From a phage, in the NCBI GenBank assembly GCA_012439925.1, contig GCA_012439925.1_4519.1: 64,000 bases of DNA, one strand, 5' to 3'. The notes below the pieces were generated by a model. The model made no database searches, was not told the DNA's origin, and saw only the letters and a list, made by a program, of their open reading frames with translations. The position numbers and the translations under genes were made by a program. Position 1 is the first letter of the stretch; the number at the start of each line of letters is the position of its first letter. Shown here piece by piece: positions 2,997-41,317 of the stretch.

Positions 2997-4681
2997 AATC
3001 ATTTAAATTAAATCGTGTTCGTTATCAAAACATCATGTCGGTAGGTGGGAATCCTATTGATATCCAATTAGATAAAGTCCAAAAGACATTAATCACTGGT
3101 AAAAATGGCGGTGGTAAATCTACGATGTTAGAAGCCATTACTTTCGGACTTTTCGGTAAACCATTTCGTGATGTTAAGAAAGGACAAATCATTAATAGCA
3201 CGAACAAGAAAGAGCTCTTAGTTGAGCTTTGGATGGAATTCGATGATAAAAAATACTTCATTAGACGCGGCCAAAAGCCCAATATTTTCGAAATCTCCGT
3301 TGACGGTGTTCGTCTCGATGAATCTGCCAGCAGTCGTGACTTCCAAGAAGAATTTGAACGTAGCATCGGAATGTCATACGCGTCTTTTAAACAGATCGTT
3401 GTGCTTGGGACGGCAGGGTATACCCCTTTCATGGCTCTTAACACCCCTGCTCGCAGAAAGCTTGTTGAAGACTTATTAGAAGTTGGAACACTCGCTGAAA
3501 TGGATAAAATCAATAAGTCTCAAGTTCGAGAACTTAATTCCCAGGGACAAGTTCTCGATGCCAAGAAAGATGGTATTATCCAACAAATTAAGATTTATAA
3601 CGAGAATATCGAACGTCAAAAGAAATTATCTGGCGATAATGTAGCGCGTCTACAGAATATGTATGACGACCTGGCTAAAGAAGCTCGGTCATTAAAAGCA
3701 GAAATCGAAGAAGCTAATGAGCGACTACTTAATATCGTTCTTGATGAAGACCCTACTGAGGCATTCAATAAGATAGGACAAGAAGCATTCTTGATTAAAT
3801 CTAAAATTGACTCATATAACAAAGTTATTAAGATGTATCATGATGGCGGTACATGTCCTACTTGCGCATCACAGTTGCACCAGGGTGATCCTATTGTCTC
3901 TAAGATTACCGATAAGCTTCATGAATGTAATCACTCATTCGAGCAACTTACCTGCCACAGAGATAATCTGAGTGTCCTAGTGGACGAATATCGAGCTAAT
4001 GTTAAGACTAAACATGACCTTGCATCCGATATCCGTACCAAGAAACAAGCAATGATTGCCACTATTGATAAAGCTAAGAAAGTTAAAGCTGCAATAGAGC
4101 AAGCCTCGGCGGAATTTATCGACCATGCCGATGAGATAGCTTTGCTTCAAAAAGAACTTGATAAAATCATTAAAACAAAATCGGATATCGTTCTTGAAAA
4201 ATACCATCGTGGTATTATCACAGATATGTTAAAAGATTCTGGTATTAAAGGTGCTATCATTAAAAAATATGTGCCTCTGTTTAATAAGCAGATTAACCAT
4301 TATCTTAAAATCATGGAAGCTGATTACGTGTTTTCTATTGATGAAGAATTCAATGAATCTATAAAATCACGTGGCCGTGAAGATTTTAGTTATGCTTCAT
4401 TTAGTCAAGGTGAAAAAGCACGCATTGATATCGCGTTGTTGTTTACATGGCGAGATATTGCTGAAAAGGTCTCTGGTGTTAAAATCAACACTCTGATTCT
4501 TGATGAGGTTTTTGATGGGGCAGTTGATTCTGAAGCTGTTAAGGCTATAGATACCATTCTTGGAAGTTTACAAAATACTAACGTGTTCATTATTTCTCAT
4601 AGGGACCATGACCCTCAACGTTATGGACAACATTTGCAAATGAGCAAAGTTGGACGATTTACTGTAATGACTGTTTCATAA
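2993..4681 (+). CDS. 46: Recombination endonuclease subunit gp46 (Rad50/SbcC-like ATPase)
   Basis: Walker A GKNGGGKST, central CPTC zinc-hook-like motif, C-terminal LILDEVFDG; 562 aa. Confidence 0.9.
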   Translation: MKSFKLNRVRYQNIMSVGGNPIDIQLDKVQKTLITGKNGGGKSTMLEAITFGLFGKPFRDVKKGQIINSTNKKELLVELWMEFDDKKYFIRRGQKPNIFEISVDGVRLDESASSRDFQEEFERSIGMSYASFKQIVVLGTAGYTPFMALNTPARRKLVEDLLEVGTLAEMDKINKSQVRELNSQGQVLDAKKDGIIQQIKIYNENIERQKKLSGDNVARLQNMYDDLAKEARSLKAEIEEANERLLNIVLDEDPTEAFNKIGQEAFLIKSKIDSYNKVIKMYHDGGTCPTCASQLHQGDPIVSKITDKLHECNHSFEQLTCHRDNLSVLVDEYRANVKTKHDLASDIRTKKQAMIATIDKAKKVKAAIEQASAEFIDHADEIALLQKELDKIIKTKSDIVLEKYHRGIITDMLKDSGIKGAIIKKYVPLFNKQINHYLKIMEADYVFSIDEEFNESIKSRGREDFSYASFSQGEKARIDIALLFTWRDIAEKVSGVKINTLILDEVFDGAVDSEAVKAIDTILGSLQNTNVFIISHRDHDPQRYGQHLQMSKVGRFTVMTVS

Positions 4682-4723
4682 ACGCTTTAACACGATGTGG
4701 TTATAATGACCACATCAAATTAA

Positions 4724-4924
4724 ATGGAGAACAACATGGAGTATTCAACTGGACAACATCTTCTCGTTGTCCCTGAAATTAAAAAATATGTTTTGACCAA
4801 TACGTTTTCAGGTGAAGAACATATTGTTACTGAACAAATGCTCAAATCTGCTTTTAAAGATGAGTATAATAAAATAATGTCTAATCGCAATTCCGCATGG
4901 ACAGTTACCGACTTCTACGAATAA
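4724..4924 (+). CDS. Hypothetical protein
   Basis: ATG ORF between genes 46 and 45. Confidence 0.45.
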   Translation: MENNMEYSTGQHLLVVPEIKKYVLTNTFSGEEHIVTEQMLKSAFKDEYNKIMSNRNSAWTVTDFYE

Positions 4925-4936
4925 GAGAGAAATAAT

Positions 4937-5353
4937 ATGTTTACTACTGCTAAAGGTTTCACTGCTGCTGATCTGAAAGTTACTTCTATCCGTACTGACG
5001 CTAACCCACATAACCATAATCGTGTTCGTAAAGCATGGGTCCTGCATTGTGATGACGCAAGTGCTAAAAAACTCCAATCTTTGCCGCAAGAAACTCGTTT
5101 TATGATTTATGGTTTTATTGATAATGATGTGTCTGATATGTGGATTCATTTGATGCGTAAGCACTATAAAGATTCTATCGAAGCAGGTGCTAAAATCGTT
5201 CTTGATAAAGACGGTTCTGAACGCCTTGAAGATTTTTACTGTGTTGATGCCGACGAACAACTAATTGCAGCTGGCGAAATTGTTGCTTCTAAAATTCCAG
5301 AATATATTGAATCACTGCCTGAAGCTATTAAAAAGCAGATGGTTGCTGCATAA
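4937..5353 (+). CDS. rpbA: RNA polymerase-binding protein RpbA-like
   Basis: Position immediately upstream of gene 45 and remembered similarity to T4 RpbA (MFTTAKGF...). Confidence 0.5.
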   Translation: MFTTAKGFTAADLKVTSIRTDANPHNHNRVRKAWVLHCDDASAKKLQSLPQETRFMIYGFIDNDVSDMWIHLMRKHYKDSIEAGAKIVLDKDGSERLEDFYCVDADEQLIAAGEIVASKIPEYIESLPEAIKKQMVAA

Positions 5354-5395
5354 TAAATTTGTTATAAACTTTGAATTGTCTTGAAAGGAAATAAA

Positions 5396-6082
5396 ATGAA
5401 ACTGTCTAAAGATACTATCGCTATTCTGAAAAACTTTGCCTCTATTAACTCTGGCATTCTGCTGAGTCAAGGTAAATTTATTATGACTCGTGCAGTTAAT
5501 GGCACCACTTATGCGGAAGCAAATATCTCTGATGAAATTGATTTTGACGTAGCACTTTATGATTTGAATAGCTTCTTAAGCATTTTGAGTCTAGTGTCTG
5601 ATGATGCCGAAATTTCAATGCACACTGATGGCAATATTAAAATTGCAGATACACGTTCCACAGTTTATTGGCCTGCCGCTGACAAGAGCACCATTGTTTT
5701 TCCTAATAAGCCAATTCAATTCCCAGTGGCTTCTGTGATTACTGAAATTAAAGCTGAAGACCTTCAACAATTGCTTCGAGTTTCACGTGGTCTTCAGATT
5801 GATACAATTGCTATTACAAATAAAGATGGTAAAATTGTTATCAATGGCTATAATAAAGTTGAAGATTCCGGACTAACTCGTCCTAAGTATTCTTTGACTC
5901 TTACCGATTATGATGGTTCTAACAACTTTAACTTTGTAATCAATATGGCTAATATGAAAATCCAGCCAGGTAACTATAAAGTAATGTTGTGGGGAGCTGG
6001 TGATAAAGTTGCAGCTAAGTTTGAAAGCTCTCAAGTAAGTTATGTTATTGCGATGGAAGCCGATTCTACTCACGACTTCTAA
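5396..6082 (+). CDS. 45: Sliding clamp gp45
   Basis: The ORF-track start at 5381 is TTG; ATG at 5396 gives MKLSKDT..., the T4 gp45 N-terminus; 228 aa; AAGGA SD. Confidence 0.9.
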   Translation: MKLSKDTIAILKNFASINSGILLSQGKFIMTRAVNGTTYAEANISDEIDFDVALYDLNSFLSILSLVSDDAEISMHTDGNIKIADTRSTVYWPAADKSTIVFPNKPIQFPVASVITEIKAEDLQQLLRVSRGLQIDTIAITNKDGKIVINGYNKVEDSGLTRPKYSLTLTDYDGSNNFNFVINMANMKIQPGNYKVMLWGAGDKVAAKFESSQVSYVIAMEADSTHDF

Positions 6083-10889: not shown

Positions 10890-11525
10890 ATGAAAACTAC
10901 TCCTATTACTATCGCTATTGACGCAATCATAAAACAAGCTTCTTCTTTGGCCGCTATGGCCAAAGTAATTAGTCAAAACTCTGCCCGATATAATGCTATT
11001 CTTGAAACTCTTCGTCGCCCTGGACTGAGTAATTATGAAAGCCGAGTAATTATTACAGGTGTTGGTAAGAACGCTAATATCGCAACTAAAGCTTCTGAGA
11101 CATTTGCTTCACTCGGTATCCCAAGTATGTACTTGAACACCGGGCATTATTCTCACGGTGATGCAGGATTCATTGCGCCTAATGATGTGTTGATTCATAT
11201 TAGTCGTTCTGGTAAGACTGAAGAAATGATAGGCGTGGCTAAGCATCTTAAAATGATTCGTCCTCAGGTTAAACAGATTCTGTTACATTGTAACCCTGAC
11301 ATTCCGCAAGAATACGAAGCTCTTTTTGATTATACGTTCTGTACCGGCATCGCGGTAGAGGTTGATGAGAATTCTCTGGCTCCTACAATGTCCACTACAT
11401 TGTTGTTAGCGCTTATCGATACGTTCGCTATCAACCTTTCGTCTGAACGCGGATTTACCTCTAATGACTTCCTTAAGTTCCATCCAGGCGGTGCACTAGG
11501 TGCCATGTTACGAGGCGAACAATGA
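10890..11525 (+). CDS. SIS-domain sugar-phosphate isomerase (arabinose-5-phosphate isomerase KdsD/GutQ-like, no CBS domains)
   Basis: SIS signatures VIITGVGKNANIATKASETFASLG, HGDAGFIAPNDVLIHISRSGKTEE and APTMSTT align with the KdsD/KpsF N-terminal domain. Confidence 0.8.
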   Translation: MKTTPITIAIDAIIKQASSLAAMAKVISQNSARYNAILETLRRPGLSNYESRVIITGVGKNANIATKASETFASLGIPSMYLNTGHYSHGDAGFIAPNDVLIHISRSGKTEEMIGVAKHLKMIRPQVKQILLHCNPDIPQEYEALFDYTFCTGIAVEVDENSLAPTMSTTLLLALIDTFAINLSSERGFTSNDFLKFHPGGALGAMLRGEQ

Positions 11526-11665
11526 AAGCAATAACAATAGGACTTTTACTATTGATGCTTGCCATGACTATCTACTGGAGCTTAACGGCTCCAGTAATGA
11601 TTCCGACTCTTATAATCGGATGGATTATGATTGGACTACAAGCAAAGTATGAATGCTTTAACTAG
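11522..11665 (+). CDS. Small hydrophobic peptide (47 aa, predicted membrane)
   Basis: ATGA overlap with the isomerase stop; MKAITIGLLLLMLAMTIYW...; below the ORF-track cutoff. Confidence 0.3.
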   Translation: MKAITIGLLLLMLAMTIYWSLTAPVMIPTLIIGWIMIGLQAKYECFN

Positions 11666-11678
11666 AATAGTGTACAAT
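11652..11678 (+). promoter_or_regulatory. MotA-box middle promoter candidate
   Basis: TGCTTTA, 12-nt spacer, TACAAT upstream of the 11707 gene. Confidence 0.4.
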
Positions 11679-11706
11679 ACACCTACTTACCAATGAGGAC
11701 CACAAC

Positions 11707-13392
11707 ATGAAAAAAGCTGTTATTCTTGGTGCTGGACTGGCAACTCGTTTGTATCCAATAACGCACCATATTCCTAAGGTGCTTGTTAACTATAAACAAG
11801 ACACTATTCTGAGCAATTTGTATACAATTTATTCTGACCTTGGTGCAGATGAAATTATTGTAGTAGTTCATTCAAAATTTGTTGAAACTGTTCGAGCTTA
11901 TTGTGAGCAAGAAGGGTTCAATGTGACTATTCGTACAGTTGATGAAGCGTATGGTTCTGCTTATGCTCTTGCTAAATTATACAAAGATTTAGATGGCCAT
12001 AACGTAATTGTTAACTGGTGTGATATTATTCCTGATTTTGGTTCATGGTCTTGGAATGTTAACGCAATCTATGTTAAGGGTGATGAATGTCGATATAATT
12101 TCGATGGTGAAAATATCACTAACGTAGGTTCAACAGGCGGTAATGTTGTAGGAATTTATCAGTTCAAAGACTGGGAATTCTACATGGGTTCTACTGATGA
12201 GGAAATTCACGAATACTGCAAAGGACGTGATTTCGTAGAATTCCTTTACGGCAGTGCATTCAATAAATCAGAGCTTATGAATCTAATTGATTTAGGTGAT
12301 ATGCCTAAACTTGAAAAGGCTCATGAAGTTCGTGAACTGAATCGTAGTTTTAATGCAGTTGAAATTGGCGAAGAAACTGTAACTAAATTCGCGTTAACCG
12401 AACAAGGTCGAGCTCTTCAAAAAGATGAGATTTCATGGTATTTGAAAGTGAAATCAGATTCAGTTCCTCAGTTAGTTTCGGTAAATGAAAATAATTTTGA
12501 AATGGAACGCATTAAAGGTAAGCCAGCATTTGAATATATTAAATCCAAATCAAGTCTTGCTCGTCCACAAATTGTTGATGCAATTTTAGATGCACTGAAA
12601 TTCAGCACAGACACTTATTTTGTAAGTCCTGAAACTGTTCGTCGTGATTTCACTAAAGAATTCTATACGAAAGTTATTGATCGTTGTGAAAGCATTCAAC
12701 CATTGATTGATTCATTTGGTAAAATCACACATGTGAACTACACTAAGATTGGACGGCTGAAGCCAATGCTGAAACAAGCTTTAGAACACCTTATTCGTTA
12801 TCATAACCGTTCTCAGGGACAGTACTCTGTTATTCACGGTGACCCAAACTTCAGTAATACTATGATTACTGATAACGGCGAAGTCAAGTTTATCGACCCT
12901 CGTGGATATTTTGGTGAAACCAAGATTTACGGGCCAAAATTGTATGATGAAGCTAAAGTGCTTTATGCTGTTTCAGGTTATGATGAATTCAACGCTAATC
13001 CGACCTGGGGCCAGTTTACTATTGATGAAACAACTTGTAATGTGACTATTAACATCAATCCATTAGTTTACAAATATGGAAAGATGAGTTCGTTTAACGA
13101 GTATCATCATTTGGCAGTGGCAATTATCTGGATTGCATTAGGTGGTTATTTCAAGAATAATCCACTTAAAGCGGTAGCCGCATATTATAAAGGTATGGAA
13201 CTTCTAACTAAGCAATTACGTAACATGGGCCGTGTACTTCAAGACGGCTCTATTAGTTATGACGTAGCAGAACCTGTAACGGCTACTCTGATTACAAAAA
13301 ATCCTGGTAAATGGGTACTAACTGATAAAGAAACTGGTGTTTCCTATCGTCCAATCGGTGGCGATATCACTCATCAATGGGAACGAATCTAA
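11707..13392 (+). CDS. Bifunctional sugar-1-phosphate nucleotidyltransferase / anomeric sugar kinase (MurU-AmgK-like fusion)
   Basis: N-terminal MKKAVILGAGLATRLYPIT is the sugar nucleotidyltransferase G-x-G-x-R-L motif; C-terminal HGDPNFSNTMI ... KFIDPRG are the Brenner (HxDxxxxN) and DFG-like motifs of APH/choline-kinase-fold kinases. Confidence 0.75.
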   Translation: MKKAVILGAGLATRLYPITHHIPKVLVNYKQDTILSNLYTIYSDLGADEIIVVVHSKFVETVRAYCEQEGFNVTIRTVDEAYGSAYALAKLYKDLDGHNVIVNWCDIIPDFGSWSWNVNAIYVKGDECRYNFDGENITNVGSTGGNVVGIYQFKDWEFYMGSTDEEIHEYCKGRDFVEFLYGSAFNKSELMNLIDLGDMPKLEKAHEVRELNRSFNAVEIGEETVTKFALTEQGRALQKDEISWYLKVKSDSVPQLVSVNENNFEMERIKGKPAFEYIKSKSSLARPQIVDAILDALKFSTDTYFVSPETVRRDFTKEFYTKVIDRCESIQPLIDSFGKITHVNYTKIGRLKPMLKQALEHLIRYHNRSQGQYSVIHGDPNFSNTMITDNGEVKFIDPRGYFGETKIYGPKLYDEAKVLYAVSGYDEFNANPTWGQFTIDETTCNVTININPLVYKYGKMSSFNEYHHLAVAIIWIALGGYFKNNPLKAVAAYYKGMELLTKQLRNMGRVLQDGSISYDVAEPVTATLITKNPGKWVLTDKETGVSYRPIGGDITHQWERI

Positions 13393-13778
13393 TGCACCGT
13401 GTAGAAAACATGCTTAATCTTTGTTTTGATGTCGATGATTGTATAACAGAGTGGAATAACAATCGTGATTACGTGAACTTCAAACCAGACGTAGAAATGG
13501 TGACCGCCATTAATGCCCTGTATGATGCAGGGCATACCATAACGCTTTACACTGCTCGCGGTATGAAGTCAGTAGGTCCTGGACGTATAGCAATTGACAT
13601 TCTCCCAAGTCTGATTCAGAACTTGGCAAACATTGGCTTGAAGTACCATAATTTGCTAACACATAAACCAGTATATGATTGGATTATCGACGACAAAGCT
13701 ATGCGTCCTGACGAATTCAAAGCTCTTATGAATAAAGGCGAATTCGAAACATTTAAATCGTATAAACCGAATCTATAA
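13392..13778 (+). CDS. HAD-like phosphatase
   Basis: N-terminal LCFDVDDCIT (HAD motif I-like), TLYTARG, WIIDDK (motif IV-like); TAATG overlap with the upstream gene. An alternative ATG at 13377 exists. Confidence 0.55.
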   Translation: MHRVENMLNLCFDVDDCITEWNNNRDYVNFKPDVEMVTAINALYDAGHTITLYTARGMKSVGPGRIAIDILPSLIQNLANIGLKYHNLLTHKPVYDWIIDDKAMRPDEFKALMNKGEFETFKSYKPNL

Positions 13779-13835
13779 TAATTTAAGTAAGACCTGCAAA
13801 AAACCATCGCATCAATTAACGTGAGATGCAAAAAA

Positions 13836-14996
13836 ATGAATACTTTTAAAATCGGAACGAATTTTGATTTAGCTCTTCTTGATAAAATCGTAGAGCTCAA
13901 TAAAACTTATCCTAATAGCTTGATAAACGAAGTATATGGCTCTACAAGAGAAATGGCTTTTGTAGCAGCCAGACCTGATTTTAGGCTTCCTGACGTTGAC
14001 AAAAAGATGTTAGAAGACTACGTTAAACGTTGTAACGAATTAGGTATTTGCTTTAACTATACACTCAACACGATAAATCCTGGTTCAAAAAGAGAACTAG
14101 TTGAGTGGAAGAAGAAAGCTATTCAGGATTATGTTCAGTATCTTTGGTCAATAGGCGTATGGCGTATTACTATCGCTAACCCTGTTGTTATGGAAATTGT
14201 TCGTGAAGTCAATAAAGATATTGAGATTGAAGTTTCAACAATTCTACATGTTGATGCTGTAACTCAAATCAAATACTTGCATGACCAATATAACATCAAA
14301 AAGGTCTGTTGCGGAATTCATAAGAACCGTTCAGTTTCTTTCCTGAAGCGTGCAGCAGAGTTTTGCAATAAGAACAATATAATATTTGAAGTTCTTGTAA
14401 ATGAGTTCTGTTCTAATGCTGGTAAAGGGTATACAACACATTGTAGCTATCGTGACTCTTGCTATATTTTCCATAGTACTGATGTTACCGCTGATGATGC
14501 TAAATCCTTAAATGGATATCCTATGCAGCACTGTATTAAAGCTCGTGATACAGACCCATTTAACTGGCTGAGAACTCGTTTTGTTCGTCCTCAAGATTTG
14601 AAACTTTATAATGATATTGGTATCACTCAATTCAAAGTTTCAGGACGTACAGGTAGCACAGACTACATTTTGAAAGTTCTTGAAGCATACGCTTCTGAAA
14701 AGTTTGAAGGTAATTTGTTAGAACTGTGGAAGCCTTTAGAGACTATTTTCACTCTTGAAAATGAGACTGAGTTTTCACATACAGTAAATATTGAAACCTC
14801 TTTGTTAGATGGCTTTTTAGAAAAAAGGTGGTTCAGACATCCAGATTTTGATTGTGCTAATGAAATCTGTGGGTCAACGTGTACATATTGTGAAAGGTAT
14901 TATAAACGTCAATTATCTAAAAACGGGTTAGCAGAAAACTCCATATCTATTATTGATATAACTAACTCTGATGACGCTTTGAGGTACCCGGAATGA
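13836..14996 (+). CDS. U32-family protein (peptidase U32 / RlhA-TrhP-UbiU-like fold)
   Basis: Blockwise correspondence with U32 proteins (RPDFRLP ... GICFNYTLNTIN ... NPVVMEIVRE ... EVSTILHVDA ... FEVLVNEFCS) plus a C-terminal Cys cluster CANEICGSTCTYC. The ORF-track start at 13821 is GTG; the first ATG is 13836. Confidence 0.6.
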   Translation: MNTFKIGTNFDLALLDKIVELNKTYPNSLINEVYGSTREMAFVAARPDFRLPDVDKKMLEDYVKRCNELGICFNYTLNTINPGSKRELVEWKKKAIQDYVQYLWSIGVWRITIANPVVMEIVREVNKDIEIEVSTILHVDAVTQIKYLHDQYNIKKVCCGIHKNRSVSFLKRAAEFCNKNNIIFEVLVNEFCSNAGKGYTTHCSYRDSCYIFHSTDVTADDAKSLNGYPMQHCIKARDTDPFNWLRTRFVRPQDLKLYNDIGITQFKVSGRTGSTDYILKVLEAYASEKFEGNLLELWKPLETIFTLENETEFSHTVNIETSLLDGFLEKRWFRHPDFDCANEICGSTCTYCERYYKRQLSKNGLAENSISIIDITNSDDALRYPE

Positions 14997-15274: not shown

Positions 15275-15991
15275 ATGGGAAAACATAACACAATGAAATA
15301 TATCAAAGCCGCAGATTTTCAAACCGCATTTAAAGCAGTCAATCGTGAAATTTTAGAAAACCCGGAATTCGTAACTGATTCTCGTATTGGACGTTGTAAT
15401 GAAATTGGGTCTATGACAGTAGTTGTTGACACTCCATCATCATTCAAAATGACCGACCCACGTATTAACCGCATCTCTTATGAATATGCCGAAGACTTCT
15501 GGAAGTTTATGATTTCTGGTGGTACCAACGCAGAAGAAGCGTTTAAGGCATATCCTAATGTCGCTAAATTTATTTCTAAACCAAAATCAGATGTTTTGCC
15601 GGCGAACTTCAACACTTTCTATGGTCCTCGCATTGCGGCCCAATTACCAACTCTTCTAAAAGAACTTAAAGAAAAACCTAACTCTCGAAGAGTTGTGTTC
15701 CAAATTCTAGAAAGTTCTGATCAGGCTTTGCTTGATTCGGACGAAACACTTGAATATCCATGTACTGACTCAGTAACTTATTATATTCGTGATGGTAAGC
15801 TTTATACCCACTGTCATATGCGTTCTCAGAACTGTGCTGTTGTTATGCAGTTGGATTTTTATCTCCAAGGAAAATTACTTCATTATATCGCTAACGAATG
15901 CGGTGTAGAAGTTGGTGATTATACTCATACCATGGTAAGTGCCCATGTGTTTGAACGTGATTTTGATTATGTTAAAGGATTCCTTGACTAA
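15275..15991 (+). CDS. 42: dCMP hydroxymethylase gp42 (thymidylate-synthase fold)
   Basis: TS-superfamily core PCTDSVTYYIRDGKLYTHCHMRSQNCAVVMQLDFYLQ (catalytic Cys and the RS(Q/N) block); 238 aa; located between 43 and uvsX as in T4. Confidence 0.7.
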   Translation: MGKHNTMKYIKAADFQTAFKAVNREILENPEFVTDSRIGRCNEIGSMTVVVDTPSSFKMTDPRINRISYEYAEDFWKFMISGGTNAEEAFKAYPNVAKFISKPKSDVLPANFNTFYGPRIAAQLPTLLKELKEKPNSRRVVFQILESSDQALLDSDETLEYPCTDSVTYYIRDGKLYTHCHMRSQNCAVVMQLDFYLQGKLLHYIANECGVEVGDYTHTMVSAHVFERDFDYVKGFLD

Positions 15992-16890
15992 TGGCTATTT
16001 TCCGCGTACCTATCTTGAGTATGCGGTCTTATGAAACTGGACAGTATGCTATCCTTAAGGATGGCAACTTCCAACTTCATTTGCACCGTGCTAATCCGGG
16101 TGATGCGATTACATATCCACGTAATGCATCTGATATTAAAGAATGCGAACGTCTTTTCCCAGAATTTAAGTTTGTTCCATTATGGTATAAAGATAACGCG
16201 TATAACACTCGTAAATATTTCTGGACTGAAAATGAATTTGTAGTTGATTCATTAATTGATTATTATGATTGTGATTTTCTAATCACAGATATCACCGGTT
16301 ATGGCGGCGCTTTTGATGTGGAATTCAATTTCAATATCACTGCAGACCCTAATAAACCACGCTTTTATATTGATGAATTCTTAAAAACCGATATGTTGTC
16401 AGTTAATCGTTCACTTCAAACTACTGTGTTGAATGAACGTCAAAAGGAAGTGCTGGTTAACGCAGGTGCAGATGGTAATAAGATTATTGTAACGCAGAAA
16501 GTTATACGTCCTTCCATCATGCAGCGTCTTGTAGGTGATTTGGCTCCTATTCATCTAGATGGTATTTTTCATCCATTTCGAATTAGTGACCCATGTTATC
16601 GTTTTGAACAAGTGGTTGAATGTGCAATTCAATTAGGTCAACCGCTTTATATAACTGATCCAAATAATAGCTTTGACAGAAATAAGTATCCTGAAGAAGC
16701 GCTGATTCGAATTTTTAAACCAACTAAAACTGAGTACTATCAAATTCTTAAAGGACGTCCGAAGATTCAATATTTCGAAAATCCTGAAGAAGTATTCCAT
16801 CCAGGTCTTGGTGAGTTCATCTACTTTAATGCTTTAATTTCTTCACCGTATAATATACCTAAATACGAAGATGTCGTAATCGAGGAATAA
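15991..16890 (+). CDS. Hypothetical protein (299 aa) at the beta-gt locus
   Basis: TAATG overlap with gene 42; occupies the position of beta-glucosyltransferase in T4 but has no similarity to it that I can see. Confidence 0.6.
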   Translation: MAIFRVPILSMRSYETGQYAILKDGNFQLHLHRANPGDAITYPRNASDIKECERLFPEFKFVPLWYKDNAYNTRKYFWTENEFVVDSLIDYYDCDFLITDITGYGGAFDVEFNFNITADPNKPRFYIDEFLKTDMLSVNRSLQTTVLNERQKEVLVNAGADGNKIIVTQKVIRPSIMQRLVGDLAPIHLDGIFHPFRISDPCYRFEQVVECAIQLGQPLYITDPNNSFDRNKYPEEALIRIFKPTKTEYYQILKGRPKIQYFENPEEVFHPGLGEFIYFNALISSPYNIPKYEDVVIEE

Positions 16891-35837: not shown

Positions 35838-37655
35838 ATGATTAAAAATGAAATTAAGGTATTGTCAGATGTAGAACATATTAAGAAACGTAGTGGTATG
35901 TATATTGGTTCTTCTGCTAAAGAAGCCCACGAGCGTTTTTTGTTTGGTAAATATCAACAAGTTGAATATGTTCCTGGTCTGGTTAAATTAATCGATGAGA
36001 TTATTGACAACTCGGTTGATGAAGCTATTCGTACATCATTTAAGTTTGCAAATAAAATTGATGTGCAAATTAAAAATAATCAAGTTTCGGTGGAAGATAA
36101 CGGACGTGGTATTCCTCAAGGTTTAGTTACCGACCAAACAGGTGAACAAATTCCTGGGCCTGTAGCAGCCTGGACTATTCCAAAGGCCGGTGGTAACTTT
36201 GGCGATGACTCTGAACGCAAGACTGGTGGTATGAACGGCGTCGGGAGTAGTTTAACTAATATCTTCTCCACGTTGTTTACAGGCATCACGTCAGATGGTG
36301 AAAATGAAATCACTGTTAACTGTTCAAACGGAATGGAAAACAAATCATGGTCTTCTAAGAAATCTAAAGGTAAAGGCACTAAAGTAATCTTCACTCCTGA
36401 TTTCACTTCATTTGAAGAGCATAATTTATCTCAAATTTATTTAGATATTACTTTAGACCGACTTCAAACATTGGCAGTCGTTTATCCTGATATCAAGTTC
36501 ACATTTAATGGTAAAAAGGTTGATGGTAATTTTAAACGATTTGCTAAACAATTTGGTGAAGATAACATCATTCAAGAAAATGATAAAGTCTCTATAGCAT
36601 TCACAACATCACCAGATGGCTTCCGTCATTTAACTTATGTGAATAACATCCATACTAAAAATGGTGGTCATCATGTTGAATGTGTAATGGATGATATCTG
36701 CGAACATCTTTTGCCCGGTATTAAAAAGAAATATAAGGGTATTGAAGTCACTAAAGCTCGTGTTAAAGAATGTCTCACAATGTTGATGTTTATTAGAGAC
36801 ATGAGCAACATGCGTTTTGATTCTCAGACTAAAGAACGTTTAACGTCAACGTATGGTGATATTCGTAATCATATCCAATTAGATGCTAAGAAAATTGCTC
36901 AGGCGCTTCTTAAAAACGAAGCCTTGATTATGCCTATTGTTGAAGCAGCATTAGCTCGTAAATTGGCGGCAGAAAAGGCTGCAGAAACTAAAGCAGCTAA
37001 AAAGGCAACTAAAGCTAAGGTTCATAAGCATATTAAAGCTAACCAATGTGGTAAAGATGCAGATACGACATTGTTCTTAACAGAAGGTGATTCGGCAATT
37101 GGATATCTCATTGATGTTCGTGACCGTGAACTACACGGTGGATTCCCATTACGTGGTAAGGTGATGAATAGCTGGGGTATGTCATATGCTGATATGATGA
37201 AGAACAAAGAGCTCTTTGATATCTGTGCTATCACAGGTCTTATTCTTGGTGAAAAGGCAGAGAATACGAACTATCGTAATATTGCAATTATGACTGATGC
37301 CGATCATGACGGCCTTGGAAGTATTTATCCTGCTTTGCTTGCTTTCTTTAGTAATTGGCCTGAATTGTTTGAACAAGGACGTATTCGCTTTGTTAAAACA
37401 CCTGTAATTATTGCACAAATTGGCAAAACTCAAAAATGGTTTTATACTGTAGCTGAGTATGAAGAAGTTAAAGATACGCTGCCTAAGCATAGTATTCGAT
37501 ACATCAAGGGATTAGGCTCCCTTGAAAAGTCAGAGTATCGTGAAATGATTCAGAACCCTGTGTACGACGTAGTTAAACTTCCTGAAAATTGGAAAGAACT
37601 CTTTGAAATGTTGTTGGGTGATGATTCAGAACTTCGTAAAGAATGGATGTCCTAA
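35838..37655 (+). CDS. 39: Topoisomerase II large subunit gp39 (39+60 fused, GyrB-like)
   Basis: GHKL ATPase motif (EDNGRGIP) and toprim (EGDSA, DADHDG); a single 605-aa ORF, so no separate gene 60. Confidence 0.9.
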   Translation: MIKNEIKVLSDVEHIKKRSGMYIGSSAKEAHERFLFGKYQQVEYVPGLVKLIDEIIDNSVDEAIRTSFKFANKIDVQIKNNQVSVEDNGRGIPQGLVTDQTGEQIPGPVAAWTIPKAGGNFGDDSERKTGGMNGVGSSLTNIFSTLFTGITSDGENEITVNCSNGMENKSWSSKKSKGKGTKVIFTPDFTSFEEHNLSQIYLDITLDRLQTLAVVYPDIKFTFNGKKVDGNFKRFAKQFGEDNIIQENDKVSIAFTTSPDGFRHLTYVNNIHTKNGGHHVECVMDDICEHLLPGIKKKYKGIEVTKARVKECLTMLMFIRDMSNMRFDSQTKERLTSTYGDIRNHIQLDAKKIAQALLKNEALIMPIVEAALARKLAAEKAAETKAAKKATKAKVHKHIKANQCGKDADTTLFLTEGDSAIGYLIDVRDRELHGGFPLRGKVMNSWGMSYADMMKNKELFDICAITGLILGEKAENTNYRNIAIMTDADHDGLGSIYPALLAFFSNWPELFEQGRIRFVKTPVIIAQIGKTQKWFYTVAEYEEVKDTLPKHSIRYIKGLGSLEKSEYREMIQNPVYDVVKLPENWKELFEMLLGDDSELRKEWMS

Positions 37656-37697
37656 GCTCCTTAGGGAGCTTCATTTTAATTTTAATAAGGCTTAATT

Positions 37698-38798
37698 ATG
37701 AAAGTTATGTTTATCCCATCTCGCGCAGTCCCATTTAACCCAGAACGTGTACAAGGTGGTCTTGAAGCAGTACATTTAAATGTGTTGAAATATCTTGTGT
37801 CCATCGGTGCTGATATTGATTATATCGGCTTTGATAATGACACATTTGGTGATTGGAAGGTTAATCATCATCCTGTTGGTCATCTGACTAAATTCAGTCT
37901 AGGTATGAGTTATACTATGGCTCGTAAGATTGTTGAACTAGCCGGCATTAATGAGTACGATTTCGTTGTTACAATGGAACCGACCAAACTAACCGTTCAG
38001 GCAATTAAAGACGCAGGTCTTTCTAAAGTTCATAAGAATTTTATGGCAACACCATTTGAACCAGTATCTCGTGGCATTGTTCAAATTTGGGACCAGACTA
38101 TTCAAATTCATAAGAACGGTGGTAAGAGTTATGCTCCTACTAAAGCCTTCCGTGAATTTGAACGTAAATATTGTTATATGACTTCAGGTCTGACTGACAA
38201 AATTGATTATGATTATTGGCGAGCAAATCCGTTGTTTGAAGCCGAAGATTATCCGGTTATTTGTTTGAATGAGAAACCTGAAGTTCTTCCGGCGACTGAT
38301 CTGATTATTAGTGCACAACGTTATGACACTAAAATGCGTCGTACTGATGTTGCTCTTGAAGCGATTAAAGCACTAGGCGAAAATGGTATTGGTTATTGTC
38401 CTAGTAAATGGGCACCACCGGCTAAGTATCCTGTTATTATTGATGCTCCACACGGTGAAATCATGGAACGTCTTAAAACAGCTAAAGCACTTATCAATAC
38501 GTGTCCTGACACGGGTACGGTAGAGAATAGTTCTATTGAAGCCATCTCTAAAGGTGTCCCTGTAATTCAGTTAGTTTTTAAGGATTATCCTCATGCGACA
38601 TTCGAATACGACCCAGATACTGTGCGTGTAGAAATTGATTCCTCTACTCCTAAGAAAGAAGTAGTTGCGCTTTACACAAAAGCTGTATTAGAATTCACTG
38701 ACACATACGAAGCTCGAGTTAAACGTGCTGAAGCAGTATGGAAGAAGTATAACCGAGATGCAGTTGTTGCGATGTGGGATAAAATCTTCACAGCGTAA
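37698..38798 (+). CDS. GT-B-fold glycosyltransferase (candidate DNA sugar transferase)
   Basis: N-terminal MKVMFIPSRAVPF ... GG.E and C-terminal TGTVENSSIEAISKGVPVIQ resemble GT4-type donor-binding motifs; T4 has no such gene between 39 and rIIA. Confidence 0.6.
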   Translation: MKVMFIPSRAVPFNPERVQGGLEAVHLNVLKYLVSIGADIDYIGFDNDTFGDWKVNHHPVGHLTKFSLGMSYTMARKIVELAGINEYDFVVTMEPTKLTVQAIKDAGLSKVHKNFMATPFEPVSRGIVQIWDQTIQIHKNGGKSYAPTKAFREFERKYCYMTSGLTDKIDYDYWRANPLFEAEDYPVICLNEKPEVLPATDLIISAQRYDTKMRRTDVALEAIKALGENGIGYCPSKWAPPAKYPVIIDAPHGEIMERLKTAKALINTCPDTGTVENSSIEAISKGVPVIQLVFKDYPHATFEYDPDTVRVEIDSSTPKKEVVALYTKAVLEFTDTYEARVKRAEAVWKKYNRDAVVAMWDKIFTA

Positions 38799-38814
38799 AT
38801 CCTGAATAGCCTGA

Positions 38815-38865
38815 GGCACTATTACACATAAGATGATAGATTATATGGTCTTTAGTAATAGTGCC
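38815..38865 (+). other. 11-bp perfect inverted repeat GGCACTATTAC / GTAATAGTGCC with a 29-nt spacer
   Basis: Seen directly; lies between the glycosyltransferase stop and rIIA.1. Confidence 0.5.
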
Positions 38866-38890
38866 CTAGGAATCTACTGAAGAGAATATT

Positions 38891-39091
38891 ATGAGAACAT
38901 ATAACGTGGACTTGGAACTTTTTGATAAAGCAGTGCTCCGGGAATTCCGGCTTATCCAAAGATTTTTTGATATCGAGTCAGCAGAGTCCTTTAAAGAACG
39001 CTTTAAAGAAATTCGATATAAAATACAAACCGATACAGCTACTAAAGAAGAACTTCTTGAAGTAGCAGAAATTTTTAAACGTAACTTGTGA
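38891..39091 (+). CDS. rIIA.1-like small protein
   Basis: 66-aa ORF immediately upstream of rIIA, as in T4. Confidence 0.5.
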   Translation: MRTYNVDLELFDKAVLREFRLIQRFFDIESAESFKERFKEIRYKIQTDTATKEELLEVAEIFKRNL

Positions 39092-39103: not shown

Positions 39104-41317
39104 ATGATTATTGAAACGGCTAAAGAAACGATTATTGGTTCAGGCGGTAAGAGCACAGCATTCACTATTCAAGGCAATAGCAAAGTTTATAAGATTTTGT
39201 CTAATGACCTTTATACAAACAAAGAATTGGCTTGTGTACGTGAATTAATTACAAACTGTATCGATGGGCAAATTCTTAATGGTTGCACTGATAAGTTTAT
39301 TGTTCAGGCTCCAGGTCGTTTAGACCCACGCTTTGTAGTTCGAGACTTTGGTCCTGGTATGAGCGATTTCACCATTAGAGGTAATGACGAAGAGCCAGGA
39401 ATCTATAACTCATATTTTGCTTCAACTAAAACATCGAGTAACGATTTCATCGGTGGATTCGGACTCGGCTCTAAAGCTCCGCTAGCATATACCGATACGT
39501 TTAACCTTACGTCTTATCACAACGGCGAAGTTCGTGGTTACGTAATCTACCAAGATGACACGGGTCCACAAATTAAGCCGACCTTTGTAGATAAGATGGG
39601 TCCTGATGACCGTACTGGTGTAGAAGTAGTTGTACCGGTTAACCCGGAAGATTTTGAAAAGTTCGCATCCGAAATTGCATATGTTATGCGTCCTCTAGGT
39701 GATATTGCAGAAGTTCGTGGTGTTAAAGATATTAAATACTTCCCTGAATTTGACGATGTATATTTGGCCAAGGAAGCTCCATGGGGTGAACGTGGTAATA
39801 TCATGGCTGTTTATGGCGGTATTGTATATCCAATCGGAAGTGTTATTAAAGAACAAACATGGATGATGACACGATGCACTACAGCTTATATTAAATTCCC
39901 TATGGGTGAACTAGATGTAGCCCCGTCTCGTGAAGCATTGTCATTTGACAAACGTACAGTAGCAAATATCCATAAACGCGTTGCAGAAATCGATGCTAAA
40001 TTGTTCGCTGAAGATTCTAAGAAATGGATTGATTGTAAATACCCACGTCATGTGTTCCGTGAAATTGATTCTCTTGGCTATACCGCTCGTAAATACATGG
40101 AAAAGGCCGGGTCTAATATTGAATCACTGAAATACTCTAAAGAACAACTAACTTATTCTGAGTTGTACAAACGTTTTAAAATGGGGCCTGAGTGGTGTAA
40201 TCTTGGCGTCGTATACGATATCGTTGAATCCCCTCGTCTTCGTCGTATTCGTGAAAGTGGTAGCTCATCATCAACTATTTCAATTAACAGCCTGATTGGC
40301 ATTAACATTAAAAACGTTGAAATTGTTATTGACGACGTTAAGGGACGCGTTCCATTAATGCGAGCTCTTAATTCAATTGAAATGTCTAAAGACGAGGTTA
40401 AATTAACCGGTAAAGTTCCACGCGGTTTTGGTAAAAGTGTACTATTCGTTGACCCTACAGACGAAGATGCAATGAAACTTCTGGAACGCCTTAAAGTTAT
40501 CTTTGATGGCGACAACATTAACATGTACAAGACTTCAGAGCTTTTACAAATCGTTAAGCCATGGATTGAAGTCAGGAAACGGACTAATGAGCCTCGTCCT
40601 AAATCGCCAAGTGCTCATCGATTCTTTAAGAATGAAAACGATGTTTGGGTATCAGAAGACCTCTTTATTCCGGCAAGTGAAGCAGATGAAATCCAAGGTT
40701 ATGCTATAGTTCGTAATCGTTCTAATGCTGAATGTCTTGACGCAGATAAAGGTTGGTTGAACTATGACTCCAATTTCTTGACCCGTATTGCTGATTTGTC
40801 AGGTATTAAAGAGTTCACTGTAGTTCGTCCACAGATTGCTAAGAAAGTTCGTAAACTTGGTGAAGTAGAATGCTTGTTCGAAAAATCAATTAATGACTAT
40901 ATTACGCTAATCGATAAAGTGGATTATGATGAGTATGTATCACCAAGTCGTAGAGCACAGCCTTATTTGAATCATATTACTCGTAATGAAGAGCTTAACT
41001 TCCTTAGTAAGTATTTTAGCTCTAAAAACAAAGAAATCAGTAAAGATTTTGCAAAACTCTCAACAGTAAATAATCGTTGGGGATGGAATCGATTCTCAGG
41101 TGCTACTAACAGAGAACTGAATAAAAAGTTAGAATTGTGTGCTAAAATTTTCGATAAGCTTAAAGATAATGCTTACGATAATGATGATAAAATGGTTATT
41201 GAATTCGAAACCAATTATCATATTGTGTCAGACTACATGGGACGACGTGGTACTCTTTCTAAAGAACAGGTCGCTCAAATTGTTAAATTCATGAAGGCCG
41301 TGGAAGCGGCCAAATAA
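39104..41317 (+). CDS. rIIA: rIIA protein
   Basis: N-terminus MIIETAKETIIGSGGKSTAFT ... LITNCIDG ... DFGPGMSDF (GHKL-like) matches remembered T4 rIIA; 737 aa. Confidence 0.9.
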   Translation: MIIETAKETIIGSGGKSTAFTIQGNSKVYKILSNDLYTNKELACVRELITNCIDGQILNGCTDKFIVQAPGRLDPRFVVRDFGPGMSDFTIRGNDEEPGIYNSYFASTKTSSNDFIGGFGLGSKAPLAYTDTFNLTSYHNGEVRGYVIYQDDTGPQIKPTFVDKMGPDDRTGVEVVVPVNPEDFEKFASEIAYVMRPLGDIAEVRGVKDIKYFPEFDDVYLAKEAPWGERGNIMAVYGGIVYPIGSVIKEQTWMMTRCTTAYIKFPMGELDVAPSREALSFDKRTVANIHKRVAEIDAKLFAEDSKKWIDCKYPRHVFREIDSLGYTARKYMEKAGSNIESLKYSKEQLTYSELYKRFKMGPEWCNLGVVYDIVESPRLRRIRESGSSSSTISINSLIGINIKNVEIVIDDVKGRVPLMRALNSIEMSKDEVKLTGKVPRGFGKSVLFVDPTDEDAMKLLERLKVIFDGDNINMYKTSELLQIVKPWIEVRKRTNEPRPKSPSAHRFFKNENDVWVSEDLFIPASEADEIQGYAIVRNRSNAECLDADKGWLNYDSNFLTRIADLSGIKEFTVVRPQIAKKVRKLGEVECLFEKSINDYITLIDKVDYDEYVSPSRRAQPYLNHITRNEELNFLSKYFSSKNKEISKDFAKLSTVNNRWGWNRFSGATNRELNKKLELCAKIFDKLKDNAYDNDDKMVIEFETNYHIVSDYMGRRGTLSKEQVAQIVKFMKAVEAAK

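Follow-up and report, generated by a model that had tools for sequence, protein, structure and literature searches.

A glycosyltransferase gene next to rIIA of a Mosigvirus probably encodes the enzyme that adds a second arabinose to 5-hydroxycytosine in phage DNA

A glycosyltransferase gene where T4 has none

Which step of DNA modification is served by a glycosyltransferase gene that lies between topoisomerase gene 39 and rIIA? The question arises in a stretch of 64,000 nucleotides of phage DNA (contig GCA_012439925.1_4519.1 of GenBank assembly GCA_012439925.1), analysed as a whole and called the window below; it belongs to the genome of a Mosigvirus (RB69-like). A sequence-only reading of this DNA had pointed to a 366-aa product as the best candidate for transferring a pentose to hydroxymethylcytosine (hmC). 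The gene and its neighbours are as follows.

35838..37655: gp39-type topoisomerase subunit of 605 aa, flanking the glycosyltransferase gene
37698..38798, plus strand: 366-aa glycosyltransferase ORF, with an ATG start and AAGG 7 nt upstream
38891..39091, plus strand: rIIA.1 homologue of 66 aa (71 % identity to T4 rIIA.1, E 2e-28), next gene downstream and a landmark of synteny
39104..41317: rIIA, downstream of rIIA.1

The ORF is real and sits where it had been placed, with the gp39-type gene on one side and rIIA.1 and rIIA on the other. No competing ORF of more than 50 aa was found at 37698..38798 on either strand. The product matches PHROG 8302 over residues 1-366 of 366 (E 2.5e-222) and has homologues in 212 phage records (tblastn, E<=1e-3), which places the ORF far beyond chance. 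A hairpin upstream of the gene (37654..37671) does not exceed shuffled sequence in stability (z -0.85) and was not adopted as a terminator.

In T4 the corresponding order is rIIA, rIIA.1, 60, 60.1, mobA, 39, and it was thus rightly noted that T4 carries no glycosyltransferase between 39 and rIIA. The two T4 glucosyltransferase genes, alpha-gt and beta-gt, are indeed missing from the window: in tblastn searches of its full length with the T4 proteins, E was 2.5 and 1.5 at best, and the weak matches all lie outside the 366-aa ORF. The genes for gp55 (6..497) and gp47 (1497..2513) are only about 1 kb apart.

A known family with a lagging annotation

The 366-aa protein is ~98 % identical to RB69 ORF003c/gp3 and to a glycosyltransferase of phage HY126, of which an apo structure (PDB 9IQZ; match at E 3e-248) and one with UDP (9IR0) have been deposited. 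Identity is 98.6 % to the RB69 protein and 97 % to that of HY126. Both are full-length orthologues (97-99 % identity over 366 aa) encoded at the same locus between gene 39 and rIIA.1/rIIA, with the same companion genes as in the window; they differ from the window protein by a handful of substitutions, none of which suggests a functional difference. In 2018, Thomas et al. put forward ORF003c as the RB69 arabinosyltransferase (PMC6024577). The core idea of an arabinosyltransferase at this locus is right, yet it has been known since 2018, and the gene represents an already known enzyme and no discovery.

The annotation of the family has fallen behind this literature. Neither Pfam (E<=10) nor NCBIfam returned a match to the 366-aa protein, PHROGs gives PHROG 8302 no functional name, and public records mostly carry the label “hypothetical protein” or, occasionally, the mislabel “DNA alpha-glucosyltransferase”. 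A Pfam scan of seven family members yielded a single match, to GT4-conflict (E 0.0028). When the family profile was run against PDB sequences, 9IQZ was the sole glycosyltransferase found and no GT4 protein appeared. A HMMER search of 1.84 billion representatives recovered only some 10 genuine relatives and nothing that links the family to the bacterial GT4 families. The GenBank record of HY126 is devoid of gene names, and one metagenomic homologue bears the JGI label “glycosyltransferase involved in cell wall biosynthesis”.

Fold and conserved motifs

An AF2 model of the protein (pLDDT 90.3) has a GT-B fold, in which two Rossmann-like beta/alpha/beta domains face each other across a cleft and the C-terminal helices return to the N-terminal domain. 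Such packing of C-terminal helices onto the N-terminal domain is a hallmark of GT-B enzymes. The best Foldseek matches are 9IR0 (“phage HY126 glycosyltransferase with UDP”) and 9IQZ, at 98 % identity and TM 0.94-0.97; superposed on 9IR0, the 98 %-identical HY126 protein, the model gives a TM of 0.94. The fold, its Foldseek neighbours and the near-identity to a UDP-bound crystal structure bear out the proposal of a GT-B glycosyltransferase, and the UDP in 9IR0 suggests, indirectly, that the window protein binds a nucleotide-sugar donor.

Fold recognition, which had been suggested as a check, has a divided outcome: the GT-B fold is found and the nearest non-phage neighbours are GT4-type, but the sequence models of Pfam and NCBIfam do not match. 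These neighbours are bacterial retaining enzymes (BshA, MshA, PimA, WaaG and sucrose-phosphate synthase) with an identity of 10-15 %. In contrast to them, the 366-aa protein has no Pfam GT4 match at E<=5, and it is one distant family member that matches GT4-conflict (E 0.003). The parts of the protein, from the order of secondary structures in the model and from alignment columns, are:

37698..38231, plus strand: N-terminal Rossmann-like domain, about residues 1-178
37755..37766, plus strand: invariant glycine-rich loop G20-G21-L22-E23 in the N-terminal domain
38232..38705, plus strand: C-terminal Rossmann-like domain, about residues 179-336
38316..38339, plus strand: invariant Q207-R208...R214 in the C-terminal domain
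38511..38570, plus strand: motif TGTVENSSIEAISKGVPVIQ, residues 272-291, the best-conserved stretch in the family
38592..38615, plus strand: family-specific invariant H299-A-T-x-E303-x-D305-P306 in the C-terminal domain
38706..38798, plus strand: C-terminal helices, residues 337-364 (H337-351 and H353-364 in the model, packed onto the N-terminal domain), then the stop codon

By general GT-B architecture, the N-terminal domain is presumed to be the acceptor-binding half and the C-terminal domain the UDP-sugar-binding half; roles of single residues are likewise presumed. The donor-binding-like motif that had been singled out in the C-terminal part is present at residues 272-291, and T272, G273, T274, E276, S279, E281, A282, I283, G286 and Q291 within it are invariant in family members down to 36-41 % identity. 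By comparison of the sequence with the motif, we take this block to be the presumed positional counterpart of the “EX7E” donor-binding region of GT4 enzymes. The block reads G273...E276-x4-E281, and the second Glu of EX7E would correspond to E281 in “EAISKGVPV”. The position of the first Glu, 8 residues before E281, is held by the invariant G273, and the invariant E276 gives E-x4-E instead. Compared with the bacterial GT4 enzymes, the first Glu of the motif appears to have been replaced.

The modified base and the sugar

The 366-aa gene shares the window with genes for a 5-hydroxy-dCMP (5ho-dCMP) synthase, for a UDP-arabinofuranose (UDP-Araf) module and for a second glycosyltransferase of 299 aa:

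10890..11525, plus strand: SIS-domain arabinose-5-P isomerase (Pfam SIS)
11707..13392, plus strand: bifunctional NTP-transferase/kinase (Pfam NTP_transferase and kinase-like matches)
13377..13778, plus strand: small phosphatase-like protein, by homology
15275..15991, plus strand: ThyA-family enzyme of 238 aa (Pfam Thymidylat_synt), assigned as 5-hydroxy-dCMP synthase and not as dCMP hydroxymethylase of the T4 type; source of the acceptor base
15991..16890, plus strand: second GT-B glycosyltransferase of 299 aa, homologue of RB69 gp46:47 and DLP3 gp79

From its homology to RB69 gp55, gp52:53 and gp51 and to HY126 AfhE/AfhF, the region 10890..13778 is predicted to be the module that supplies UDP-arabinofuranose (PMC13326640).

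As to the base, an acceptor of the T4 type had been assumed, i.e., hmC. A T4-like genome in which a ThyA-family gene occupies the place of gene 42 invites this assumption, and in 2018 the DNA of RB69 was described as arabinosyl-hmC (PMC6024577). The ThyA-like enzyme does not agree with it. Its identity to T4 gp42 is no more than 24.8 %, and the HY126 enzyme deposited as PDB 9IQC/9IR2 is nearly the same protein (E 3e-160). Moreover, the window enzyme has Asn at the position of E. coli D169, where T4 gp42 keeps Asp, and Asp at that of N177. This combination is the signature of 5-hydroxy-dCMP synthases according to Lee et al. (2026), who also describe the activity (PMC13326640). The D169N signature and the low identity to T4 gp42 indicate that the window phage uses 5-hydroxycytosine (5hoC) and not hmC. 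The chemistry of related phages already contradicts hmC: by mass spectrometry and NMR, RB69 DNA contains beta-D-Araf-(1->3)-alpha-D-Araf-5-hydroxy-dC, its arabinose ether-linked to 5-hydroxycytosine (PMC13326640), and MS/MS and NMR of the DNA of Mosigvirus NP likewise gave 5-hydroxycytosine with ether-linked arabinose, the hmC assignment being called erroneous (PMC13390438). That the 366-aa protein moves arabinose, or glucose, to hmC in the manner of T4 has therefore next to no probability.

A second glycosyltransferase in the window

The 366-aa protein had been taken for the sole recognisable glycosyltransferase of the window, which the ORF at 15991..16890 disproves. The stop codon of the ThyA-like gene and the start of this ORF overlap (TAATG), and the ORF's product is confidently a GT-B enzyme whose closest structural neighbours are retaining GT4-type enzymes. 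tblastn finds it in 349 phage records, among them Shewanella phage Thanatos-1 and Serratia phage LC53. The two families show no relationship by profile-profile comparison (hhalign probability 0.4 %) or BLASTP (E 1.7), and a PDB search returned no entry with the 299-aa protein.

This enzyme is the best candidate for initiating alpha-arabinose transfer to 5-hydroxycytosine. Its DLP3 homologue gp79 was inactive on 5hoC DNA when assayed alone, as was every single DLP3 glycosyltransferase on bare 5hoC DNA (PMC13326640). The first transfer might take place at the nucleotide level, as an alternative to DNA.

It could be argued that the 366-aa protein is an obligate partner in a complex of two glycosyltransferases, for instance with the 299-aa enzyme, such that neither step is assignable to one protein. 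The third arabinose of DLP3 was only obtained with gp76 and gp77 together, each being inactive singly (PMC13326640), and the several chains of the same protein in 9IQZ, up to a chain H, hint at oligomers. Against such a complex, the family is single-copy in Mosigviruses, and a pairing of the gp76/gp77 type does not apply as such. The two window genes are also 21 kb apart and not in one operon, their products have neither sequence nor profile similarity, and the 299-aa protein is absent from the PDB. We consider this arrangement improbable.

Copy number follows the number of arabinoses

The 366-aa family is confined to Mosigviruses (one copy), Acinetobacter phages (two tandem copies) and one further record, and both organism groups also have the 299-aa glycosyltransferase. 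About 137 phage records outside these groups contain the rest of the pathway without the 366-aa gene. Dhakaviruses such as JS98 and Klebsiella phages such as Marfa also have the 299-aa gene and no member of the 366-aa family, and their DNA is predicted to be mono-arabinosylated only. In Thanatos-1 and LC53, tblastn (E<=1e-3) finds no member of the family while the 299-aa gene is present. Thanatos-1 and LC53 thus have no copy, RB69, HY126 and other Mosigviruses a single one, and DLP3 and Maestro two. Mahler et al. (2025) are said to have found three arabinoses in the DNA of Maestro.

These numbers can be set beside the published DNA chemistry. Thanatos DNA is mono-arabinosylated (PMC13326640), LC53 has one arabinose and Bas46 two (bioRxiv 10.64898/2025.12.19.695335), the latter number also being reported for Bas46 and Bas47 elsewhere (PMC12923530). 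RB69 and NP contain one and two arabinoses (PMC13326640, PMC13390438) and DLP3 three (PMC13326640). Copy number is hence always one less than the count of arabinoses (zero, one and two copies against one, two and three arabinoses), which argues that the family is a chain-extending transferase. Lee et al. (2026) and Readshaw et al. also propose that two transferases act one after the other in RB69 and that gp3 is the later one (PMC13326640, PMC13390438). In addition, Bas46 devoid of the arabinosyltransferase “Aat” is viable and sensitive to defences (PMC13216743), a phenotype compatible with a dispensable accessory step if Aat is the 366-aa gene.

The same data bear on whether the 366-aa protein could be the initiating transferase, which puts the first arabinose directly onto 5-hydroxycytosine, as the sequence-only reading and Thomas et al. 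(2018) would have it once the base is corrected. ORF003c was in 2018 the only RB69 protein found by glycosyltransferase HMMs (PMC6024577), a member of this family was the one selected for crystallisation with UDP, and the 299-aa homologue DLP3 gp79 alone was inactive on 5hoC DNA in vitro (PMC13326640). Nevertheless, the mono-arabinosylated phages Thanatos-1 and LC53 manage with the 299-aa enzyme and no 366-aa family member, as do the about 137 further records, copy number tracks the additional arabinoses, and DLP3 gp76 and gp77 extend chains but are inactive on bare 5hoC DNA (PMC13326640). We therefore regard initiation by the 366-aa protein as unlikely, though less so than the two-enzyme complex. 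The candidacy as DNA arabinosyltransferase accordingly stands as regards membership in an RB69-like arabinosylation pathway (PMC6024577, PMC13326640, PMC13390438); attachment to the base itself is probably not its role, since Thanatos-1 and LC53 lack the family.

There is very little likelihood that the enzyme has its target outside DNA, for instance in a glycan of the host envelope, a protein or a small molecule. It is true that the structural neighbours PimA, BshA, BGluT and WaaG have lipids, thiols, pterins and LPS as their substrates, and that JGI ties one metagenomic homologue to the cell wall. By comparison, the family is restricted to phages with the 5hoC-arabinose pathway, the copies of Acinetobacter phages are embedded in the arabinosylation gene cluster, and homologues are active on DNA in vitro (PMC13326640).

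Comparison with Acinetobacter phages and with T4

The Acinetobacter phage proteins are DLP3 gp77/gp76 and Maestro 078/077, which match the window protein end to end at 41-44 % identity and have all the conserved motifs in common with it. In DLP3 and Maestro, the two paralogues directly follow the genes for the ThyA-like enzyme, the 299-aa glycosyltransferase and a kinase. gp76 and gp77 are 56-57 % identical to each other, lie in tandem inside the pathway cluster and are both needed for the third arabinose: purified and supplied with UDP-Araf, they added it to RB69 DNA (PMC13326640). In comparison, the window phage has one copy, 21 kb from the pathway cluster, and its type of DNA does not go beyond two arabinoses. 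Relative to the gp76/gp77 duplication, the window protein takes the position of an outgroup. With gp77, the proposed second-step enzyme, it shares 31 diagnostic columns and 43 % identity, as against 25 columns and 41 % for gp76, the proposed third-step enzyme, too small a difference to make it the orthologue of either.

The T4 alpha-glucosyltransferase (GT72) and beta-glucosyltransferase (GT63) have no detectable sequence similarity to the 366-aa protein. They place glucose on a 5-hydroxymethyl base, whereas the system of the window deals with arabinofuranose and a 5-hydroxy base. The acceptor of the T4 enzymes is the base; that of the 366-aa enzyme is probably a sugar hydroxyl on an existing arabinose. 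The beta-alpha-glucosyltransferase of T2 and T6 makes gentiobiose, and with such an acceptor the logic of the 366-aa enzyme would be nearer to this protein.

A proposed order of reactions

On the ORF, its fold, the near-identity to a UDP-bound structure and the pathway context seen here, and on the RB69 DNA chemistry and the DNA activity of the Acinetobacter phage homologues reported in the literature, the ground is firm. The 366-aa ORF probably encodes the accessory DNA arabinosyltransferase of Mosigviruses (RB69 gp3/ORF003c, HY126 glycosyltransferase) that adds the second arabinose; the step and the residues involved are what we infer.

[quoted passage not shown] UDP-arabinofuranose would be made by the module at 10890..13778, and the 299-aa GT-B enzyme (15991..16890) would put alpha-D-arabinofuranose on the 5-hydroxyl of the base. 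The 366-aa enzyme, with UDP-Araf bound by the C-terminal Rossmann domain near R208, R214 and the TGTVEN...E281 block, would then add another arabinofuranose, beta-(1->3)-linked, to the first one already on the DNA, presumably after replication. The product, di-arabinosyl-5-hydroxycytosine, would shield Mosigvirus DNA from nucleases.

Which bacterial defences are able to cut or sense phage DNA seems to depend on how many arabinoses its cytosines carry; restriction enzymes, CRISPR-Cas, enzymes of the GmrSD/BrxU type and DNA glycosylases are among the published cases. Assigning the step would make DNA chemistry predictable from the genome: the 299-aa glycosyltransferase alone would signify one arabinose, one additional family copy two and a second copy three. 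It would also permit the level of protection of therapeutic Mosigviruses to be adjusted, and offer enzymes for the glyco-labelling of DNA.

Stereochemistry

If UDP-Araf is the only donor, an alpha first linkage and a beta second one require that one glycosyltransferase of the window retains and the other inverts. It speaks against the proposed order of reactions that both have retaining GT4-type enzymes as their closest structural neighbours. In a further difference from the bacterial GT4-type enzymes, the linkage proposed for the product of the 366-aa enzyme is beta; that of its companion is alpha. Tentatively, and with the odds rather against it, one may picture the 366-aa enzyme as a GT4-looking scaffold of a usually retaining clade, with an altered donor motif (G273/E276), that transfers arabinofuranose with inversion and in beta-(1->3) linkage to a sugar already present in the major groove, possibly without base flipping, unlike the classical phage DNA glucosyltransferases.

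The gene and its surroundings

By megablast, the window falls among the RB69-like T-even phages of the genus Mosigvirus, with 154 records at 80 % query coverage or more and Shigella phage Shf125875 at 98.8 % identity. The ORF put forward as a candidate DNA arabinosyltransferase encodes a glycosyltransferase of 366 amino acids (the 366-aa GT), which is 98.6 % identical to RB69 ORF003c and lies in the following neighbourhood.

35838..37655 (+), gp39-type topoisomerase subunit, 605 aa, upstream of the 366-aa GT, 79 % identical to T4 gp39
37698..38798 (+), 366-aa GT, ATG start with AAGG 7 nt upstream
38799..38890 (+), 92-nt spacer between the 366-aa GT and rIIA.1
38891..39091 (+), rIIA.1 homologue downstream of the 366-aa GT, 71 % identical to T4
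39104..41317 (+), rIIA, downstream of rIIA.1

The ORF is genuine, and any other reading frame that overlaps it, on whichever strand, is 50 aa or shorter. The T4 gene order at the same locus (rIIA, rIIA.1, 60, 60.1, mobA, 39) bears out the claim that T4 has no glycosyltransferase between 39 and rIIA. The alpha-gt and beta-gt genes, said to be absent, are indeed without a match when the T4 proteins are compared with the whole window (E 2.5 and 1.5), and the gap between gp55 (6..497) and gp47 (1497..2513) amounts to just ~1 kb. The donor-binding-like motif noticed near the C-terminus can be placed at residues 272-291, the best-conserved block across the family. The factual content of the sequence-only reading holds, except for the statement that the window has no other recognisable glycosyltransferase.

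One uninterrupted ORF encodes the topoisomerase large subunit here; T4 has it in two parts, gp39 and gp60, separated by mobA and the gene-60 translational bypass. Since the alignment with T4 gp39 (516 aa) covers only 35838..37259, the remainder of the 605-aa ORF presumably corresponds to gp60. The spacer downstream of the 366-aa GT contains a strong hairpin with perfect 11-bp arms (38815..38825 / 38855..38865, dG -28.6 kcal/mol, z -4.4 relative to shuffles). The hairpin (38815..38865) lacks a following U-run and so does not qualify as a classical intrinsic terminator; it might be an mRNA 3' end stabiliser or a processing site.

Fold and family

The 366-aa GT has no match in Pfam or NCBIfam, even at E<=10, and matches PHROG 8302 ('unknown function') over its full length. 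A PDB sequence search retrieves entries 9IQZ and 9IR0, which contain a near-identical chain (E 3e-248); both were released on 2025-07-16 and presumably originate from He et al. 2026. For the structure predicted from an alignment of the few homologues available (pLDDT 90.3, pTM 0.87), the best Foldseek matches are 9IR0, 'phage HY126 glycosyltransferase with UDP', and 9IQZ, the apo form (TM 0.94-0.97). Beyond these, fold recognition, which had been proposed as a check, returns GT-B enzymes at TM about 0.6-0.68 and 10-15 % identity, the majority of them GT4-type (BGluT, BshA, LmbT, PimA, MshA, WaaG). A GT-B fold and UDP binding are thus well supported for this enzyme. At the sequence level, GT4 membership is unsupported.

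The family is very small: among 1.84 billion representatives searched exhaustively with HMMER there are 15 matches at E<=1e-3, about 10 of which are true relatives. The paralogues of Acinetobacter phages (gp76 and gp77 in DLP3) are 56-57 % identical to one another and 41-44 % to the 366-aa GT, which shares 31 diagnostic columns with the gp77 type versus 25 with the gp76 type, a slight lean towards the former. In the HY126 genome record (PP658200.1, 3244..4344, - strand) the gene reads '...AISKGVLGIQ...' within the invariant motif where PDB 9IQZ and every other family member have '...AISKGVPVIQ...', a discrepancy that probably stems from an error in sequencing or assembly. Phage EP32B has the gene broken into two pieces. 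Public annotation is inconsistent, with 'hypothetical protein' in most records and 'DNA alpha-glucosyltransferase' (HX01, many Acinetobacter phages) or 'putative glycosyl transferase' in others; arabinose is named in none of the matched records.

The acceptor base and a second glycosyltransferase

15275..15991 (+), ThyA-like ORF at the 'gene 42' position, near-identical to PDB 9IQC/9IR2/9IQU, codes that adjoin 9IQZ/9IR0
15991..16890 (+), 299-aa glycosyltransferase (299-aa GT), GT-B by its predicted model (pLDDT 94.9)

The sequence-only reading took hydroxymethylcytosine (hmC) as the acceptor. When the ThyA-like ORF is aligned to E. coli ThyA (RSCDVFLGLPFN) and T4 gp42 (RSNDVVFGFRND), its segment RSQNCAVVMQLD has Asn where E. 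coli ThyA has D169 and Asp where it has N177. D169N is the signature of 5-hydroxy-dCMP synthase according to Lee et al. (PMC13326640); the base made by this genome is 5-hydroxycytosine (5hoC), not hmC. Identity as a dCMP hydroxymethylase is ruled out by D169N/N177D, by an identity of only 24.8 % to T4 gp42 and by the near-identity to the three PDB entries.

The 299-aa ORF has no match in Pfam or among PDB sequences; judged by its model it is clearly a GT-B enzyme, which contradicts the view of the 366-aa product as the only recognisable glycosyltransferase. Its start overlaps the ThyA-like stop (TAATG), it appears to be translationally coupled to that gene, and DLP3 gp79 is 46 % identical to it. 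The confirmation of the 5hoC signature in the window and this second GT-B enzyme are added here.

Published work on the pathway

Thomas et al. (2018) proposed this protein as the RB69 DNA arabinosyltransferase on the same argument as the sequence-only reading (PMC6024577). Lee et al. 2026 showed that RB69 DNA carries beta-D-Araf-(1->3)-alpha-D-Araf, ether-linked to 5-hydroxy-2'-deoxycytidine and not to hmC, the 5-hydroxy base being the product of a thymidylate-synthase homologue that depends on flavin and O2 (PMC13326640). They named RB69 gp46:47 'arabinosyltransferase 1' and gp3 'beta-arabinosyltransferase 2', and stressed both assignments as hypotheses (PMC13326640). Readshaw et al. likewise place RB69 gp3 as the later of two transferases acting in sequence (PMC13390438). 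DLP3 gp76 and gp77 jointly put a third arabinose on RB69 DNA with UDP-Araf, and no single glycosyltransferase modified bare 5hoC DNA (PMC13326640). For the 366-aa GT, the assignment as a DNA arabinosyltransferase dates from 2018, the structure from 2025 and the proposal of a likely step from 2026. The candidacy for DNA arabinosyl transfer matches the 2018 hypothesis; its hmC chemistry has since been corrected to 5hoC, and the second glycosyltransferase had been missed.

Copy number and arabinose number

The 299-aa family comprises >136 clusters and occurs in 349 phage records (Escherichia 177, Acinetobacter 57, Klebsiella 26, Shigella 15, Serratia 14, with Enterobacter, Proteus, Yersinia, Edwardsiella, Pectobacterium and Shewanella as further hosts), in which the gene almost always adjoins a thyA-like gene. 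It is the universal glycosyltransferase of the 5hoC-arabinose system across these 349 records, and likely the initiating enzyme. The 366-aa family forms just 10 clusters, profile search included, in 212 records: Mosigviruses have one copy, 55 Acinetobacter phages two, and one record is labelled 'Tegunavirus'. The searched phage collection contains Thanatos-1, LC53, 92A1, HY126 and DLP3, and none of its Shewanella or Serratia records matches this family. The measured arabinose chemistries line up with copy number, a link made explicit here across about 350 genomes.

Arabinoses measured and copies of the 366-aa family (sources of the chemistry in brackets)
Thanatos-1, LC53: 1 arabinose; 0 copies (PMC13326640; bioRxiv 10.64898/2025.12.19.695335)
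RB69, NP: 1 and 2 arabinoses; 1 copy (PMC13326640; PMC13390438)
Bas46, Bas47: 2 arabinoses; 1 copy (PMC12923530)
DLP3: 3 arabinoses; 2 copies (PMC13326640)

In the Acinetobacter phages DLP3 and Maestro the ThyA-like, 299-aa-GT and kinase genes are followed immediately by the tandem pair of paralogues, a context that ties the family to the pathway; the lone Mosigvirus copy lies 21 kb away. About 137 phage records have the 299-aa GT without a 366-aa-family gene, among them Dhakavirus JS98/JS10/MX01, Klebsiella Marfa/F48, Enterobacter CIP9, Edwardsiella PEi20, Yersinia TG1, and Proteus, Serratia and other phages. The prediction for these phages is one arabinose only, or else an extension of another kind.

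Proposed mechanism

The 366-aa GT is almost certainly a UDP-sugar glycosyltransferase of the DNA arabinosylation pathway, and it probably performs the second, not the first, arabinose transfer. In the most likely mechanism, the 299-aa GT would first have placed an alpha-arabinose on 5hoC in duplex DNA. The C-terminal domain of the 366-aa GT would bind UDP-arabinofuranose, with invariant R208, R214, T272-G273-T274, E276 and E281 as putative donor residues by analogy with GT4 enzymes and given the existence of the UDP complex, and the enzyme would then move arabinofuranose to O3 of the alpha-arabinose already in place. The family-specific invariant H299-A-T-x-E-x-D-P, together with the N-terminal domain, might form the arabinosyl-DNA recognition site. 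Since one linkage is alpha and the other beta, with one donor one glycosyltransferase must invert. Both enzymes of the window most resemble GT4 enzymes of the retaining kind, and in the 366-aa GT another residue seems, from the sequence, to stand in place of the first Glu of the GT4 EX7E motif.

The Peptidase_U32 ORF

13821..14996 (+), Peptidase_U32-family ORF of the arabinose module, taken with 3992..5502 of Erwinia phage Virsaitis27
14993..15232 (+), 79-aa ORF overlapping the U32 stop codon, at the position of chorismate mutase in Winklerviruses

Of all the pathway proteins, the Peptidase_U32 ORF shows the highest conservation, with at least 80 % identity in 222/222 phage records; it is 82 % identical to Shewanella Thanatos-2, whereas the 299-aa GT is 48 % identical to Thanatos-1. 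The DLP3 and Maestro clusters lack it, and the matches listed for it include no Acinetobacter phage; Acinetobacter is a strict aerobe. Winklerviruses have a genuine chorismate mutase (CM_2, E 1.7e-11) between the Peptidase_U32 ORF and the ThyA-like gene; the 79-aa ORF has no Pfam match and no similarity to this enzyme. The U32 proteins RlhA and TrhP hydroxylate C and U of RNA at C5 in a prephenate-dependent reaction, TrhP without O2 (PMC5727448, PMC6599085). A back-up link between Peptidase_U32 and 5ho-dCMP synthase was not found in the literature searched. From the chemistry of RlhA and TrhP, taken with the pattern of conservation and context, the Peptidase_U32 ORF could stand in for the O2-dependent 5ho-dCMP synthase under anaerobic conditions.
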